Below are positions 59,590-64,000 of a DNA stretch of 64,000 bases, piece by piece. Every line of letters begins with the position of its first letter. Within the stretch, counting starts at the first letter, position 1. The position numbers and the translations under genes were made by a program. The notes beneath the pieces are model-generated. The model was given only the letters and a program-made list of their open reading frames with translations. It was not told the origin of the DNA and ran no database searches. This stretch comes from Candidatus Latescibacterota bacterium (GTDB lineage: Bacteria > Latescibacterota > UBA2968 > UBA8231), in contig OZ244561.1 in NCBI GenBank assembly GCA_965217585.1, positions 4,512,001-4,576,000 on the forward strand, written 5' to 3'.

Positions 59590-60483
59590 ATGACTACCGC
59601 CTCCATCGATATAGCTCCCCTGCCGCAAGCCACTTTTGGCAAGACCGGCGCACACGTCCCCTTGCTCGGCTTGGGCACGGCCCCCGGCGGCTTTGGCCTA
59701 GCAGACGCGGATGCCATCGCGCTTTTTGAACGGGCCATTGACCTCGGCGTTACCTACATCGATACGGCCCCCGGCTACGAGCGCGCCCAGAGCCAGCTCG
59801 CCCAGATCGTCCCTCATTGTCGGCGCGAGCTGTTCTTGGTTAGCAAAGCCCACACGGCCCACTACCAAGAGGCGCTCGATATCGTCGAAAAGAACTTGGA
59901 CGCCTTGGGCACTGATCACTTGGACCTGATGTACGTCCACTCGCTGGGGCACTTAGACGTGGAACAAGTGCTGGCCAAAGACGGTGCCCTCGCTGGCTTG
60001 CGCGAAGCGCAGCGTCGCGGTTGGACCCGCTATATCGGCATCACCGCTCACCACGCACCTTGGAAATCCGCCAAGGTCCTGCGCGAGGTCGAGATCGACG
60101 CCTGCATGTTCGCCTTCAACTTCGTCGACTGCCACATTTACAACTTTGAGGAGGTGGTCCTGCCCTTGGCCCGCGCCCAGAGCGCTGGCATTGCCGCGAT
60201 GAAGGTGTACGGCGGGGCCATCGACATGAAGTACGACAAGTCCCGGCCCTCGCAGATGGCCAACAGCGGCTTTGACGATCACGAGCGGGCGCTGCGCTAC
60301 GCCATGGGATTGCCGGGAGTGAGCTTGGCGGTCATTGGAGTCTATAACGAGGAGGAGCTAGTGCAGAATATCGAATGGGTGCGGCGTTACGCGCCGTTAG
60401 ATGCTGGCGAACAACAGGCGCTCCTAGCGCAGGGGCGGGATATGGCGCGTCAATGGGGGCCGCACTACGGGCCGGTGGAGTGA
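59590..60483 (+). CDS. Aldo/keto reductase whose 3' end is repeated twice downstream
   Basis: GVTYIDTAPGY, LDLMYVH, AMKVYGG. Confidence 0.9.
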   Translation: MTTASIDIAPLPQATFGKTGAHVPLLGLGTAPGGFGLADADAIALFERAIDLGVTYIDTAPGYERAQSQLAQIVPHCRRELFLVSKAHTAHYQEALDIVEKNLDALGTDHLDLMYVHSLGHLDVEQVLAKDGALAGLREAQRRGWTRYIGITAHHAPWKSAKVLREVEIDACMFAFNFVDCHIYNFEEVVLPLARAQSAGIAAMKVYGGAIDMKYDKSRPSQMANSGFDDHERALRYAMGLPGVSLAVIGVYNEEELVQNIEWVRRYAPLDAGEQQALLAQGRDMARQWGPHYGPVE

Positions 60484-60487
60484 GCCT
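60422..60487 (+). repeat. att-like direct repeat copy 1 (intact AKR 3' end)
   Basis: ...CGTCAATGGGGGCCGCACTACGGGCCGGTGGAGTGAGCCT. Confidence 0.9.
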
Positions 60488-60516
60488 CCGTAATACAAAA
60501 CATTAATGGGGAATTT

Positions 60517-61650
60517 ATGAAAATCACCAAGGTCAAAGCCCTTGTTTCATCAAGCGGCCATTTTTTCGTGAAGGTAGAAACCGATGCTGGCATCTACGGT
60601 CTCGGTGAAGGTGGCGTAAGACGACGTGCCCTCGCCCTAGCCGAAGTCGTTCGCTCTTTTGAACCGTTTCTCATTGGTGCAGACCCGTTCCAAATCGAAC
60701 ATCTGTGGCAAGTGATGTTCCGCGGTGGCTTCTTCCCCGGCGGGGTCGTCCAATCCGCCGCAGTAAGTGCCGTAGATATCGCACTTTGGGACATCAAAGG
60801 AAAAGCACTAAATGTTCCTGTGTACGAACTTTTAGGCGGACGCACGCGAGACAAAGTCGTCTGCTATCCTCACAACGGTGGCGGTACGATTGATGCTCTC
60901 GTTGAGAGCTGTCGAAAAACCCATGCAGCCGGTTGGAAATTCGTCCGCTGGGGCTTGGCTGACGGTGCAGACAAAGGGACGTTTGAACCCAGACGCGCTA
61001 TTCAGCACGGCGTTGAGCAGGTACAGGCAGTTCGCAATGCATTGGGCGACCAGGTCGAAATATTAGTTGACGTGCATACCCGTCTCGACCCAGCGGATAG
61101 TCTCGATTTCTGCAACCGGGTTGCTCCCTACAATCCGTTTTTTATTGAAGATCCGCTGCGGAGTGAAAACCCAGCCAGTCTCCGGCGGCTCCGCCAACAG
61201 ACTTCTGTCCCGCTTGCTGTCGGGGAACAATTTGATAGCAAGTGGACCTTCAGAGAAGTCATTGAGGAGGATCTGATGGATTACTGCCGAGTTGATCTGT
61301 GCATTGCCGGTGGATTGACAGAGGCGCGTAAAATTGCCGGGTGGTGCGAAACGCATTACATCCATCTGGCACCACACAACCCGCTTGGTCCTGTCTCCAC
61401 TGCAGCCTGTCTGCATCTTTGTTTAGCATCCTCACTCGTGGGTGTCCAGGAACTTCCTCGTGCGCCGATGTCTTCACTGACCGATGAGTTTCCGGTGCAG
61501 GTGCCGTTTGAATCTGGTTACCTCTTGCCGCCCGCAGCCCCTGGTCTCGGTATTGAATTCAACGAGGCAGCATTCATCAACGTGTCAACACAGGACTACG
61601 GACCACCCACCGGCTATCAGCGCGATGATGGGTCCTATACAAATTGGTAG
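60517..61650 (+). CDS. Mandelate racemase-family acid-sugar dehydratase (DgoD/RspA-like)
   Basis: IALWDIKGK, VDVHTR, FIEDP, VGEQ, APHNP; lower GC than flank. Confidence 0.85.
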   Translation: MKITKVKALVSSSGHFFVKVETDAGIYGLGEGGVRRRALALAEVVRSFEPFLIGADPFQIEHLWQVMFRGGFFPGGVVQSAAVSAVDIALWDIKGKALNVPVYELLGGRTRDKVVCYPHNGGGTIDALVESCRKTHAAGWKFVRWGLADGADKGTFEPRRAIQHGVEQVQAVRNALGDQVEILVDVHTRLDPADSLDFCNRVAPYNPFFIEDPLRSENPASLRRLRQQTSVPLAVGEQFDSKWTFREVIEEDLMDYCRVDLCIAGGLTEARKIAGWCETHYIHLAPHNPLGPVSTAACLHLCLASSLVGVQELPRAPMSSLTDEFPVQVPFESGYLLPPAAPGLGIEFNEAAFINVSTQDYGPPTGYQRDDGSYTNW

Positions 61651-61958
61651 GGATTTAAAGGGTTATACATCGACTACATCCCACGAAAGGCACGCTTTCA
61701 AACCCGGCCTCGATCCGACGCTATCTAGAGGGGGAGGGCTGTCGGCGGTGCCCCAGTTCGATTTCGCCGCCGGACCTGCCTTGTCTTTCGCTTCCGCCTC
61801 CGGCCATACGGCTTGGTGTGCCCTGAAGGATCCCCAAGTACCGGGTTGACCCCGATAGGTGCCGACGGGCAACTAAACCGTACGTACTACGAGCCCTGTC
61901 GAGGAACCTGCAAACGATCTTCAGGGAACTTGCCCGACCCTTGCCTGCGCTTAGTGCC

Positions 61959-61988
61959 TTGACAGGGAATAAATGCCTATGTTATCTT
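61959..61988 (+). promoter_or_regulatory. Sigma70-like promoter
   Basis: TTGACA, 18-bp spacer, TGn-TATCTT, upstream of AAGGAGG RBS. Confidence 0.55.
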
Positions 61989-62044
61989 GCGCCTAGTTGG
62001 ACCCACCTAGCCCATACATAGCGCATAATTTAAGGAGGAGAGGA

Positions 62045-62722
62045 ATGTCTGACCACAATAAGCAGGGTAACAGCGATGATAAGCCTACCTTGCTAAAGGC
62101 AGTGGAACTCGTACTAGCCGATCCTGCGGAAATAAGAAGAGAGGCTATTGTCCTCAAGCAGCAATATCAGCGACGATTTTCCGACTCAAATTCGGATGAC
62201 GAAATCAACACCTTGGTGGCTGACAAAATCATATCCAACTATTCCTACTATGCTGCTTTTGTCGGAGGCACTACTGCGCTGACAGGTGTGGTGCCTGGAT
62301 TAGGAACAGCGATAGCAACTTTTGGTGGAGCAACCGCTGATGCTGCTTTATCTATGAAATATCAGATCGAAATGACAATGGCTCTTGCTACTGTTTATGA
62401 CCATAACATCGAAATTGAGGAAGAGAAAAGACTTTGCTTCATCGTAGCGGGTCTAGGAGCAATTAATGAGGCAGCTAAAAAAGGCGGCAAAGCTGTAGGG
62501 ACAAAGGCTTTCGTCAAAATGACTCAGCAATATTTGAGAGGCGCAACCTTGCAGGCAGTAAAAGAAATCTTCAAAAAGGTCGGTGTTACATTCACGCGAA
62601 AAGCTGTTGAAAAATCAATTCCTTTTGGAATTGGAGTGATTATAAGCTTTTCGGCCAACAAGGGGCTCACTTGGTATGTGGGTAACAAAGCTAAGAATTT
62701 CTTTGCTATATACGATTCCTAG
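62045..62722 (+). CDS. EcsC-like family protein
   Basis: GGTTALTGVVPGLG..AD, KSIPFGIG; low GC; stop lies inside repeat copy 2. Confidence 0.7.
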   Translation: MSDHNKQGNSDDKPTLLKAVELVLADPAEIRREAIVLKQQYQRRFSDSNSDDEINTLVADKIISNYSYYAAFVGGTTALTGVVPGLGTAIATFGGATADAALSMKYQIEMTMALATVYDHNIEIEEEKRLCFIVAGLGAINEAAKKGGKAVGTKAFVKMTQQYLRGATLQAVKEIFKKVGVTFTRKAVEKSIPFGIGVIISFSANKGLTWYVGNKAKNFFAIYDS

Positions 62723-62780
62723 TGCAGGGACGGGACTCGCACGTCAATGGGGCCGCACTACGGGCCGGTGGAGTGAGCCT
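62717..62780 (+). repeat. att-like direct repeat copy 2
   Basis: Matches 60422-60487; G-run is 4 instead of 5. Confidence 0.9.
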
Positions 62781-62806
62781 TACCGATTGTTCAAACTGTT
62801 AAAGCT

Positions 62807-63133
62807 CTATAGCTCGGCGAAATCCAATCTGATCCGAAATCCCAAGGCCGATACAATGGCCATCAGATTGTCTATCTTCGGCTTACTGCGACTTGAAAGC
62901 ACGCGGTAGAGATGTTCGCGGTTGAGGCCAGAGCGCTCTGCCAATGCCCCAACGCCCCCTTGTGCTTGGGCGACATCGCGCAGGGCCAATAGCAGCCCAT
63001 CGATCTCGCCGCTTGCTTCACACTCATCTAGCGCGACTTCCAAGTAGGCCCGAGCTTCTTCGGGGTCTTTGAGTGCTTTTAGCAGCCCTTCGTCGTAGCT
63101 GACCGTGCGTTTCAAAACATGTTTCTCATTCAT
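62807..63133 (-). CDS. Addiction module antidote (HTH) protein
   Basis: YLEVALD, LLLALRDVAQAQGG, GLNREHLYRVLS. Confidence 0.88.
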   Translation of the reverse strand: MNEKHVLKRTVSYDEGLLKALKDPEEARAYLEVALDECEASGEIDGLLLALRDVAQAQGGVGALAERSGLNREHLYRVLSSRSKPKIDNLMAIVSALGFRIRLDFAEL

Positions 63134-63464
63134 CGCTATAGCTCCTCAAGTCCTGCCAATATGCTTTGGCGCGTTCAATGTCGCGGCGTTGTGATCGTTT
63201 AGTACCGCCGCAGAGCAAAATTACAATCGTCCTTCCTATTTCTCCATAATACACGCGATACCCCGGACCATAGTGGATTCTCAGTTCAAACACACCTCCA
63301 CCTAGAGATTCGGCATCGCCCATGTTTCCCTGTCGCACACGATTAATTCGGTTGCGGACGATCGCTCGTGCTTTTCTATCTTTGAGAGACTCCAACCAAT
63401 CATCAAAAGGCACGTTTCCTTGTGGGGAAACGTAATTGCGCAACGTCCTAGGAGACATGTTCAT
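63126..63464 (-). CDS. Addiction module killer protein (RelE/ParE-like)
   Basis: GNMGD, ELRIHYGPGYRVYY, LLCGGTKRSQRRDI. Confidence 0.9.
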   Translation of the reverse strand: MNMSPRTLRNYVSPQGNVPFDDWLESLKDRKARAIVRNRINRVRQGNMGDAESLGGGVFELRIHYGPGYRVYYGEIGRTIVILLCGGTKRSQRRDIERAKAYWQDLRSYSDE

Positions 63465-63472
63465 ATGCAGAA

Positions 63473-63490
63473 TGTAGCGTACGCGCTACA
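63473..63490. promoter_or_regulatory. Palindromic operator candidate upstream of TA pair
   Basis: TGTAGCG-TACG-CGCTACA, 8 bp upstream of the toxin ATG. Confidence 0.5.
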
Positions 63491-63515
63491 AGAAGTAAAC
63501 TAAAGGTGTGGCGTT

Positions 63516-63559
63516 TGGCCCGTCAATGGGGCCGCACTACGGACCGGTGGAGTGATCCT
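63516..63559 (+). repeat. att-like direct repeat copy 3
   Basis: TGGCCCGTCAATGGGGCCGCACTACGGACCGGTGGAGTGATCCT; same missing G as copy 2. Confidence 0.88.
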
Positions 63560-64000
63560 TTATCCTTGAGGAGGCGACATATTAACAACGGTAGCGTCTC
63601 CATAAGTGGATTGCACGACACGTTCCATAGAATCGATTTCCTCATCCGCCAGATGGTTAAAGTGGCTTGCACGTCTTCGTGCGGACAGTCGGCCGTTGTT
63701 TTGGAGGCAAAAACGAATGAAGAGGTCAATCTGTCGGTCGGGCATATCTACGATGTCTTGGATAGCTTGTTTGGTCGCATCGTAGTTGGCCAGGAAGGCC
63801 AGTTCGCGGGCGAGTTCGGTATCGATGGTCTGATCGATGAAGCGAAAAAGTGCCTCCGCTTGGGGGGTCATGTCGATATAGCGGTACCATGTAGCGGTAT
63901 CGTTGTGCACAGTCAAGCGTCCATCTTGGTCGAGTGTGTATTCCACCAAGGGCATTAGCTGTCGGGAGAACGCATTTAGGGAAGCGTCATAGTCGGCTGG
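63560..64000 (-). CDS. C-terminal part of a probable Fic-family protein (5' end outside window)
   Basis: Open to window edge; YRYIDMT..AEAL, IVDMPDRQIDLFIRFCLQNNGRLS resembles Fic C-termini; Fic motif itself not visible. Confidence 0.6.
   Translation of the reverse strand, partial: PADYDASLNAFSRQLMPLVEYTLDQDGRLTVHNDTATWYRYIDMTPQAEALFRFIDQTIDTELARELAFLANYDATKQAIQDIVDMPDRQIDLFIRFCLQNNGRLSARRRASHFNHLADEEIDSMERVVQSTYGDATVVNMSPPQG

Follow-up and report, generated by a model that had tools for sequence, protein, structure and literature searches.

How did the end of one metabolic gene come to stand three times along the chromosome of a Candidatus Latescibacterota bacterium, with small genes between the copies? 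Near the right end of the window, the stretch of 64,000 nucleotides analysed here, the 3' end of an aldo/keto reductase (AKR) gene is repeated at two downstream sites, on the + strand and in direct orientation, as found by a repeat search and by gapped blastn-short. A sequence-only reading had taken these copies as the borders of three very small integrase-less cassettes, lodged at a reusable site in the AKR gene end. The features are as follows.

59590..60483, + strand: AKR, a core gene of the genus (Pfam Aldo_ket_red, E 5e-22)
60419..60488, + strand: repeat copy 1 (r1), the functional AKR 3' end with its stop and about 5 nt (nhmmer, E 1e-20)
60517..61650, + strand: enolase-superfamily dehydratase, galactonate dehydratase-like (Pfam MR_MLE_N/C; NCBIfam NF010624, 315 bits, cut-off 311)
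61664..62716, + strand: EcsC-like segment of 1.05 kb, found among 24 genomes only in the window genome (G000)
61843-61970, inside the EcsC-like segment: promoter-like 122-nt element, with 4 further copies in the genome
62045-62722, + strand: EcsC-like ORF (PADLOC PDC-S29, E 2e-8; Pfam EcsC, E 4e-4, below cut-off)
62716..62781, + strand: repeat copy 2 (r2, 'rA' type), a displaced, frameshifted AKR 3' end (blastn-short, repeat search)
62807..63133, - strand: HigA-like antitoxin, HI1420 family (Pfam PF21716, E 8e-15; TIGR02684, 54.2 bits, cut-off 53.7)
63126..63464, - strand: HigB/RelE-ParE-like toxin, HI1419 family (TIGR02683, 125 bits, cut-off 62.9; Pfam Gp49)
63474..63489, unstranded: 6-4-6 inverted repeat upstream of higB, read from the sequence, likely an operator
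63504..63559, + strand: repeat copy 3 (r3, 'rB' type), a displaced AKR 3' end (blastn-short, repeat search)
63560..64000, continuing to 65161, - strand: Fic-domain gene, its 3' part in the window (Pfam Fic, E 2e-13; PADLOC PDC-S24, E 2e-184)
65178-66068, past the window end: EamA, convergent to AKR

The repeated unit consists of the last codons of AKR, whose orthologues in the genus share 75-95% amino acid identity. Copy r2 aligns with r1 over 66 nt at 89% identity and is identical to it over the right-hand 32 nt; r3 matches the AKR end over 50-57 nt at 84% identity, with its left border at 63504 or 63510 and its right border at 63559. A 22-nt core is matched exactly in both downstream copies and in 0 of 100 dinucleotide shuffles. 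These searches confirm the recurrence, and blastn-short over the whole genome, a single 7.32 Mb contig, returned only the three known copies, the next best match being of 18 nt. The finer observations of the sequence-only reading also stand. Alignment gaps show that r2 and r3 both lack one G of a GGGGG run, a frame-preserving five-base run kept in 21/21 AKR orthologues of the cassette-bearing clade. The junctions are tight, the EcsC-like stop (62720-62722) falling within r2 and the complement of the Fic stop codon (63560-62) beginning one base past r3. The GC content is 44-57% from 60500 to about 65170 (about 55% in the dehydratase gene), against 62-70% in the flanks.

The nature of the target became visible in three of the 24 genomes (G016, G023 and G017), where AKR and EamA converge directly, with a 19-nt overlap, as read from the empty-site sequences and the EamA C-termini. 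There a CTA lying 16 nt ahead of the AKR TGA is, on the other strand, the EamA stop. Each repeat copy supplies an EamA 3' end as well as an AKR end: the copies represent the displaced overlap, and through them both genes stay whole. The proposal of a reusable site holds for the insertion point, which has been reused, but the target is the AKR/EamA overlap and not AKR alone. The rB type adjoins EamA in most relatives and encodes its last codons; the rA type is also found to the left of HigA in G012 and G003, and adjoining EamA in G012. In the window genome the last 8 or so EamA codons are replaced by Fic, which directly adjoins EamA with no repeat on its far side, so that the third unit, lacking a fourth copy, is not the repeat-delimited cassette it had been thought to be. 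The Fic gene is 515-533 aa long, the PDC-S24 match spans its full length, and its first 25 nt or so after r3 correspond to the leader found ahead of MNT in relatives.

This locus is hypervariable in a genus of Candidatus Latescibacterota. A galactonate-dehydratase-like gene occupies it in 21 of the 24 genomes, 17 of which add further cassettes: HigBA, MNT/HepT, DUF433/PIN, the Fic-like PDC-S24, the EcsC-like PDC-S29, HSDR_N and a second dehydratase. EamA was located in 19 genomes, which show about 15 different gene contents; far from being identical and fixed in all relatives, the content differs in all four of the best-supported sister pairs. Fic is scattered across 4 lineages, and truncated HigB, HepT and Fic are common in relatives' arrays, where the inverted repeat upstream of higB is kept. 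Some cassettes belong to single genomes (EcsC in G000, HSDR_N in G002, a HEPN 301-aa gene in G020), and a complete PIN/DUF433 occurs at this locus only in G001. What had been described as a first unit of dehydratase plus EcsC comes apart in this comparison. The dehydratase, the innermost cassette, is fixed in the clade (21/21 cassette-bearing genomes, absent from the 3/3 empty ones) and is followed in relatives by an 18-38 nt repeat remnant that the window genome has lost; the EcsC-like segment is separate, with no blastn match in 19 relatives and, in a tblastn map of the 24 genomes, an EcsC gene only in G000. The locus is now a small toxin-antitoxin and defence islet.

In the 21 filled genomes repeat copies lie at cassette borders and every match with E<=0.4 is on the + strand, the sole minus-strand match within an array having an E of 4.6. 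The left junctions of three unrelated cassettes (the dehydratase, HigA and the MNT leader) differ by no more than about 3 nt and lie 5-8 nt past the AKR stop, and the Fic and PIN cassettes open with the start of the MNT leader sequence. By a rough estimate, with no computed test behind it, such coincidence is unlikely if the junction were free to fall within a 36-72 nt duplication. The displaced copies are bipartite: the core of each is nearly identical, whereas the outer part next to it has diverged more, as is the case in attP-derived arms. The duplicated length varies: the stretch after the dehydratase has 18-38 nt, others have about 55 and 66 nt, and that of the newest cassette has about 125 nt. 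Inner copies, worn to 18-38 nt, show no sign of constraint.

As had been noted for the window, no integrase accompanies the array. Neither an integrase gene nor a recognisable fragment was found among the labelled or scanned ORFs of 22 arrays, which include part of those <100 aa (the region downstream in G145 was covered only by a genome-wide PF00589 search), and in the six genomes searched no tyrosine recombinase gene over the Pfam cut-off comes closer than 0.47 Mb to the array. Five relatives have only a XerD-like, a XerC-like and a third Xer-like gene, beside mutL and conserved in all six; the window genome has two tyrosine recombinases more and no gene with a resolvase domain. No integron-integrase match passed the NCBIfam cut-offs. 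The repeats were also correctly judged to differ from attC sites, as they contain neither a hairpin (folding z-scores -0.8 to +0.4) nor a clear inverted-repeat core. Elsewhere in the genome, as a positive control, a tyrosine recombinase gene lies within three to four direct repeats of 75-107 nt. Searches of 185,579 species genomes (9 loci, all AKR), IMG/VR (0 matches) and JGI metagenomes (8 true among 66 repeat matches, all AKR genes) placed no repeat copy anywhere but at the AKR locus, which leaves no external attP candidate.

Most cassettes are old, because their divergence about equals that of the flanking genes: HigA, HigB, Fic and MNT share 88-97% nucleotide identity between most species, against 86-95% for AKR. 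Judged by these identities, the pattern fits an old array that would mostly have been losing parts rather than brisk cassette traffic, and a single ancestral array followed by losses could account for the relative order of the cassettes. The second dehydratase, as the newest gain, is 98.3-99.6% identical across 4 species over a tract of the gene ±25 nt; its borders lie away from the repeats, with a duplication of about 125 nt and a right junction 35 nt inside EamA. In G144 two different alleles of the locus have apparently been joined 35 nt inside EamA, the left copy following an intact HigB and the right copy a HigB-deletion scar. The HigBA module (62821-63504) shares 83.6% nucleotide identity with a module in another family of the class, where it stands in a different context without repeats.

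Other loci share this architecture: a gene end is followed by a small cassette and then by 59-92 nt copied from that end, and relatives have empty sites there. One PIN/DUF433 module (83% nucleotide identity) is found at two different loci, each with a locus-derived repeat: 59-71 nt of a PhyH gene end in G000 and 92 nt of an aldolase gene end in G145. In G021 and G141 the module, at another place, carries along a PhyH-like gene-end fragment. At a DUF4249-gene locus an adenine methylase and DUF7687 cassette has been inserted, and the displaced copy has the bases of a sister species at 3 positions where the functional copy differs. Across loci the duplications measure 25-125 nt and always end 0-26 nt past a stop codon.

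It is very improbable that misassembly or chance resemblance explains the repeats, even though the window comes from a metagenome-assembled genome and public short-read contigs end at r2. Besides the shuffles and the single-contig assembly, the same junctions (repeat to HigA, HigB to repeat, repeat to EamA) are found again in relatives whose genomes were assembled independently, many as a single contig, and among four public sequencing runs examined as Logan contigs the dehydratase-EcsC join is bridged by contigs from three studies, with 0 differences in two runs and 8 in the third. Those metagenomes also contain contigs with exact jumps, between the end of r2 and that of r3 or between r3 and EamA, as might be expected of a live integron-like platform in which a host recombinase encoded elsewhere (the third Xer-like gene or either extra one of G000) moves single cassettes, each with one repeat. 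The small, mostly toxin-antitoxin or defence cassettes bounded by direct repeats and differing between sister species would suit such a platform, as would the lineage-specific gains (EcsC, HSDR_N, the HEPN gene, the complete PIN/DUF433) and the conservation of the third recombinase. The skipping contigs, however, are relatives' alleles and not excision products, because they were matched at 85% likeness and have depths unlike that of the G000-specific segment (where contig depth is about 9 in 3 runs, and far higher in the flanks). The platform also sits poorly with shared cassettes as diverged as their flanks, an order that fits losses from an ancestral array, the missing hairpin and inverted-repeat core, the eroded inner copies, and the lack of any cassette at another repeat-bearing site, there being no other such site. 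We therefore think it improbable, and find no support for a trans-acting recombinase that actively mobilises single cassettes.

A serious rival, although in our view a rather unlikely one, is a duplicative route in which no site-specific recombinase was ever involved. Homology to a flanking core gene would hold one side of incoming DNA from relatives in place, and the other side would be joined illegitimately; homology-facilitated illegitimate recombination and replication template switching are candidate mechanisms. Because the two genes overlap, only joins that duplicate the overlap keep both of them, and selection alone could then produce the repeats. The varied lengths and junctions, the G144 alleles, the gene-tight borders of the 99%-identical dehydratase unit, the repeat-free HigBA of the other host, the PIN/DUF433 module with its own repeat at each of two loci, the sister-species bases at the DUF4249 locus and the scarcity of recombinases in these genomes all speak for this route, and many hotspots without integrases change their content through recombination in the core genes that flank them, according to two reports (PMC5635113, PMC10250203). 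It accounts less well for three old junctions that coincide within about 3 nt, for bipartite copies, for the PhyH-like fragment that travels with PIN/DUF433 like an attP mimic, and for duplications confined to 25-125 nt and to 0-26 nt past a stop, where a free illegitimate join should often differ.

We give about an even chance to an old series of Campbell-type integrations at the shared gene end, after which deletions, IS elements and interspecies exchange altered the array; its recombination chemistry and order of events we infer, whereas the anatomy, the empty site, the variability and the lack of a linked recombinase are observed. Foreign modules would have entered serially by single crossover at the shared 3' end, accreting in tandem within the 19-nt overlap, which would be duplicated at each entry: the AKR-side copy would retain the AKR stop, the EamA-side copy the last EamA codons, and inner copies would decay. 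The first three entries (dehydratase, HigBA, MNT/HepT) would be due to a site-specific recombinase, either encoded on since-lost parts of the incoming DNA or supplied in trans. Afterwards the array would have been reshaped by deletions between repeats or at microhomologies, by IS hits, and by exchange, homologous or illegitimate, among species that occur together. We count in favour of serial integration the empty site, border repeats in one direction, coinciding left junctions, bipartite copies, turnover, cassette age, the positive-control recombinase locus and the precedent of tRNA and ssrA islands, where successive integrations displace older elements outward, partial copies of the target mark remnants, and some units have no integration genes (10.1101/2020.12.28.424599, PMC3146451, PMC5704250). 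Against it we count the lack of a nearby recombinase in recombinase-poor genomes, the variable duplication length, a second dehydratase that ends off the repeats, the lack of an external attP candidate, EcsC without a left and Fic without a right repeat, and a HigBA that travels repeat-free in another family.

Among known systems, the AKR-EamA array resembles the tandem accretion of streptococcal ICEs, IMEs and CIMEs, with direct repeats of the target gene 3' end between units; ICESt1, for example, targets the end of the fda gene. CIMEs, or cis-mobilizable elements, keep attL and attR and have lost their integration genes, some streptococcal units are integrase-free, and new units integrate at the att copy beside decayed ones (PMC5704250). 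Compared with CIMEs, the AKR-EamA units have no integrase or conjugation gene in 24 genomes, measure 0.5-3 kb with one or two genes each, and use the overlap of two convergent protein genes, with uneven duplication lengths and junctions. Dehalococcoides likewise has multiple tandem islands downstream of one gene, bounded by 3'-end direct repeats; the published account gives a tmRNA target, a uniform 20 bp repeat, 16 islands with a serine recombinase module, 15 without an integration module, and one base that consistently differs between gene and repeats (PMC3146451). The arrays described here have no recombinase, and their window genome no resolvase-domain gene. Tycheposon islands of Prochlorococcus also arise by serial integration at one site, older elements being pushed outward; they lie at tRNA genes, contain partial target copies and degraded remnants, mostly lack a live element and include defence genes in their cargo, and the population has integrase-carrying elements (937 elements) (10.1101/2020.12.28.424599). 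Neither the 24 genomes nor the 66 metagenome loci nor IMG/VR yielded such an element for the AKR-EamA site. An ordered array of small cassettes with one repeat orientation and a recombinase outside the cassettes recalls sedentary chromosomal integrons, whose cassettes are often promoterless or bear toxin-antitoxin genes. Those integrons, however, have an adjacent intI and cassette-specific attC sites; here no intI adjoins the array, and the repeats do not fold, being copies of a host gene end. Also similar are integrase-free hotspots of horizontal transfer and core defence hotspots, variable defence-rich regions between core genes without mobile-element markers, whose content has been suggested to change through homologous recombination in the flanking regions; these reports do not describe internal scars (PMC5635113, PMC10250203). 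The AKR-EamA units, in contrast, are separated by displaced gene-end copies, and these record how the units entered.

The locus between the aldo/keto reductase (AKR) gene and the convergent EamA gene of the genome under study (G000, one contig of 7.32 Mb) is a real hypervariable islet of defence and toxin-antitoxin (TA) genes with an unusual and informative scar pattern. The gene order of this array of cassettes was assigned with Pfam, NCBIfam and PADLOC. It is listed here in window coordinates, while positions prefixed G000:C1 refer to the contig.

59590-60483, + strand: AKR gene (Pfam)
60517-61650, + strand: galactonate-dehydratase-like gene of the enolase superfamily (Pfam/NCBIfam)
62045-62722, + strand: EcsC-like gene (Pfam match under the cut-off; PADLOC PDC-S29, E 2e-8)
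62716-62781, direct: second copy of the AKR 3' end, 66 nt, 89% identity
62807-63133, - strand: HigA-like gene (TIGR02684, 54.2 bits; cut-off 53.7)
63126-63464, - strand: HigB-like gene (TIGR02683, 125.4 bits; cut-off 62.85)
63504-63559, direct: third copy of the AKR 3' end, 50-57 nt, 84% identity
63560-65161, - strand: Fic-domain gene, running past the window end (PADLOC PDC-S24, E 2e-184)
Beyond the window: EamA gene (- strand), then sulfatase, GH113 and GFO oxidoreductase genes

The GC content is 44-57% from 60500 to about 65170 and 62-70% outside. By family models over their cut-offs, the HigA-like and HigB-like genes, which overlap by 8 nt and lie downstream of a 6-4-6 inverted repeat, are a predicted type II TA pair (HI1419/HI1420, HigBA-like). 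As the sequence-only reading had described, the AKR 3' end recurs twice downstream in direct orientation, and both downstream copies are one G short of the gene itself. The two copies share a 22-nt core with the AKR end, matched in 0 of 100 shuffles. A whole-genome search returned only the three copies in G000; therefore there is no repeat on the far side of Fic. Of the three repeat-delimited units originally proposed, HigBA is indeed bounded on both sides, but the EcsC-like gene has no left copy and the Fic gene, the supposed third unit, no right one. Rfam, searched with 9 kb, returned nothing at E<=1. A 122-nt promoter-like element at 61843-61970, upstream of the EcsC-like gene, recurs four times elsewhere in G000 (75-88% identity), in one case 9.6 kb from a tyrosine recombinase gene. 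The array dehydratase, used as a tblastn query, has about 65 matches (E<=1e-5) around G000, a very large expansion of enolase-superfamily dehydratase-like sequences.

We compared the locus across 24 genomes of the genus, G000 included, and found differing cassette sets as well as the empty sites that the earlier reading had proposed to look for. In three more distant species (G016, G023 and G017) AKR directly meets EamA, and the two frames share 19 nt, bounded by the AKR stop and the complement of the EamA stop. The 21 filled genomes, in which the reading frames of AKR and EamA are still open, form one clade with SH-aLRT 100 in a tree of six flanking proteins (23 rows; G017, with fewer than two of the six, was omitted). 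A dehydratase gene lies right behind AKR in all 21, alone in two of them and with further units in 17; the other two (G019 and G145) have no EamA within 14 kb, and the G019 locus is disrupted by two IS (DDE_Tnp_1) copies. The further units comprise HigA with or without HigB, MNT/HepT, DUF433/DUF5615-PIN, Fic, an HSDR_N protein, a HEPN protein, an aspartyl-protease pair and a second dehydratase. Between AKR and EamA, the 19 genomes with EamA found show roughly 15 distinct combinations of genes, and content differs within all four best-supported sister pairs. Repeats in the relatives also bound the dehydratase, MNT/HepT and second-dehydratase units. With its PADLOC matches (PDC-S24, PDC-S29), TA pairs and HSDR_N, the region carries variable, defence-enriched accessory content between conserved core genes, as a core defence hotspot or integrase-free horizontal-transfer hotspot does. 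In G012, an IS5-family transposase element interrupts the array dehydratase (contig L023, 3674-4598).

The nature of the repeat became apparent from its position. A search profile built from 16 genuine AKR ends located additional copies at the edges of units in the majority of filled genomes, with every match of E<=0.4 on the + strand. Since the copy adjoining EamA encodes the last 8-9 EamA codons on the other strand and the AKR copy encodes the AKR end, the repeat is the duplicated AKR/EamA overlap, and with it neither gene is lost when a unit is inserted between the two. No such role protects the inner copies from decay, and those behind the dehydratase are worn down to 18-38 nt. Three unrelated units, namely the dehydratase, HigA and the MNT leader, have their left borders clustered within about 3 nt, 5-8 nt past the AKR stop. 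Fic and the PIN cassette of G001, the sister species, each open with the first part of the MNT leader, so they may have taken the place of genes inside an existing slot.

Most of the content is old. Between species, HigA, HigB, Fic and MNT show about the same divergence as AKR and the dehydratase, and the relative order of the old cassettes could derive from a single ancestral array that lost different members in different lineages; truncated forms of HigB, HepT and Fic and a shared 39-nt microhomology deletion fit the same history. The reusable gene-end site proposed from sequence stands; active traffic in integrase-less cassettes is still a conjecture. Gains are seen as well. A 1.05 kb EcsC segment is unique to G000 among the 24 genomes; in public-run data (Logan contigs of four runs) it has a contig depth of about 9, and its neighbours total far more in three runs. 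Copies of the second dehydratase from four species share 98.3-99.6% identity, against 87-94% for the AKR genes of these species, and the identical tract, the gene plus or minus 25 nt, stops short of the flanks. In G144 this unit is flanked by a repeat of about 125 nt, in which the higB operator and the AKR-end repeat are joined to 35 nt of EamA; the junction of this newest event lies 35 nt further on than the three clustered left junctions. An intact HigB precedes the left copy and a HigB-deletion scar the right one, as would result from the fusion of two alleles. Another family of the class has a module 83.6% identical to the HigBA module of G000 (62821-63504), there without such repeats.

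No recombinase accompanies the array. An integrase was found neither among the array ORFs of the 24 genomes (Pfam on unlabelled ORFs plus tblastn labels), nor in the 20 kb beyond the window (Fic, EamA, sulfatase, GH113, GFO oxidoreductase), nor at the IS-broken G019 locus. G000 has five PF00589 genes, namely XerD, a XerC-like gene, a third Xer-like gene and two more, all at least 1.2 Mb from the array, and no resolvase-domain gene. The third of these, flanked by leuS and mutL (G000:C1:6415855-6416829), is a Xer-like tyrosine recombinase gene whose type was found in 6 of 6 genus genomes searched. Five relatives hold only the XerD-, XerC- and third Xer-like types, and in the six genomes searched no PF00589 match over the cut-off lies nearer to the AKR locus than 0.47 Mb. 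The notion of a reusable gene-end site with no linked integrase is upheld. Pattern scans of genome, viral and metagenome contig collections gave no repeat copy outside AKR loci: genome contigs yielded nine loci, all in Latescibacterota-type MAGs at the AKR locus, viral contigs none, and metagenome contigs 66 (8 true AKR genes, the other 58 chance matches).

Two metagenome contigs of the same species as G017 (L087 and L089) carry one intact and one truncated tyrosine recombinase gene, 2.6-5.7 kb from AKR. We rejected these as an array-linked integrase, as the island has its start within EamA, some 73 nt downstream of the AKR stop, and not at the repeat. No second repeat copy occurs within 11.6 kb, synteny differs on both sides, and no relation of this integrase to the G000 recombinases was found. 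Following the roughly 73 nt of EamA is a low-GC island of 8-9 kb, which also holds a DUF3472 gene, a glutathione peroxidase and a metallophosphoesterase. Sequencing runs that contain a small fraction of the sequence words of this stretch are labelled sponge or marine metagenomes, and one of them (X2) holds related sequence. Contig joints that skip HigBA, Fic or both were considered as excision forms and rejected, as they belong to relatives; likewise, a 'go-back' joint (L001, 5532 to 4754), considered as a circle, reflects a variant repeat carried by a relative of higher abundance.

The same signature was then sought in the rest of G000 by scanning for isolated short direct repeats 250-6000 nt apart around lower-GC DNA. 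Four of the nine candidates inspected, out of 38, share the build of gene end, insert and gene-end copy, and three were confirmed by Pfam and an empty site in a relative:

G000:C1:459301-460157 (locus a): DUF5615-PIN/DUF433 pair behind a PhyH gene; repeat 59/59 identical, or 71 nt by empty-site overlap
G000:C1:286966-289084 (locus b): GmrSD restriction gene pair behind a GFO oxidoreductase gene; repeat about 70-75 nt
G000:C1:2051229-2052894 (locus d): Dam-type adenine methylase and DUF7687 behind a DUF4249 gene; repeat about 74-77 nt

At least 10 species, among them the sister G001, have an empty locus a; locus b is empty in G005 and G144, and locus d, where the insert supplies the stop codon, in G001. 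The locus a module recurs in G145 (83% nucleotide identity) behind an aldolase gene, with a 92-nt repeat of that gene's end (97% identical); the aldolase locus shows remnants or empty sites in other species. In G021 and G141 the module sits elsewhere, accompanied by a PhyH-like end fragment. No shared end motifs were seen by eye among the inserts at five loci. For comparison, a tyrosine recombinase gene (G000:C1:3359222-3360226) lies among interleaved direct repeats of 75 nt (four copies) and 107 nt (three copies) spanning G000:C1:3343762-3373935, probably a recombinase-linked tandem island, and shows how a recombinase-linked array looks in this genome. Two further low-GC inserts, with families read from translations only, lie between direct repeats of 27-37 nt that take in a gene end: one of 3.5 kb with four ORFs (G000:C1:1736417-1739941) and one of 2.5 kb with IS630-like pieces (G000:C1:3377604-3380152). 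The direct-repeat scan also returned a repeat-spacer region beside a cas2-like ORF (G000:C1:1975400-1977200), probably a CRISPR array.

How did the array arise? We give about an even chance to old site-specific entries at the AKR/EamA gene end, followed by decay and exchange. This reading is based mainly on the coincidence of three junctions, on the bipartite build of the displaced copies and on precedent. Anatomically, the array matches tandem accretion at the 3' end of a gene, a build known from tRNA, tmRNA and some protein genes; passages of PMC5704250, PMC3146451 and 10.1101/2020.12.28.424599 offer precedents, including units without integration genes. A duplicative route free of recombinases carries a modest probability. 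It is favoured by the varying duplication lengths and junctions, the allele join in G144, the flanking of one module by differing, locus-specific repeats and the near absence of recombinases; homology-facilitated illegitimate recombination and template switching are known mechanisms.

A live integron-like platform driven by a host recombinase is considerably less probable. The features of integron sites, like pdif modules, are well known, and the likeness to an integron suggested by the sequence-only reading did not hold: integron integrase models score far under their cut-offs for all five G000 recombinases, and neither intI nor attI was found beside the array, within 1.2 Mb of which G000 has no recombinase. 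That the array lacks attC hairpins, as the same reading had it, was borne out, since both strands of all three copies, folded as single-stranded DNA, gave z-scores of -0.79 to +0.36, and 39-123 of 200 shuffles folded equally well. That the whole arrangement is an assembly artefact is very improbable indeed.

Beyond this locus, we consider it rather doubtful, but worth stating, that sponge-associated, recombinase-poor Latescibacterota possess a general route that places gene-tight TA and defence modules at host gene 3' ends with a target duplication of 60-90 nt, by a trans-acting host recombinase or with no site-specific recombinase. AKR/EamA would be the most reused site of such a route, and integrase-free hotspots elsewhere may be built alike but lose their scars. 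According to passages of PMC5635113 and PMC10250203, many bacterial gene-gain hotspots, defence hotspots included, lack mobile-element genes, and their filling still awaits an explanation. The AKR/EamA locus is a written record in this respect, with a displaced shared gene end between units and relatives that supply the empty site and many intermediates. Given that the signature recurs at other G000 loci as recent insertions absent from sister species, the mechanism of entry is directly testable; furthermore, a gene end, a low-GC insert and a copy of the gene end provide a simple way to find small defence and TA insertions in uncultured genomes.

Compared with known systems, integrons have intI and attI beside the array and attC sites that fold, whereas the AKR/EamA array has neither. 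In ICE/IME/CIME accretion arrays target-site repeats bound every unit; here, in G000, HigBA is bounded on both sides and EcsC and Fic on one. Those arrays also have an integrase of matching specificity in at least some units or related elements, in contrast to none in the arrays of the 24 genomes. As in ICE/IME/CIME systems, however, relatives retain the empty target site, and AKR is intact after insertion.
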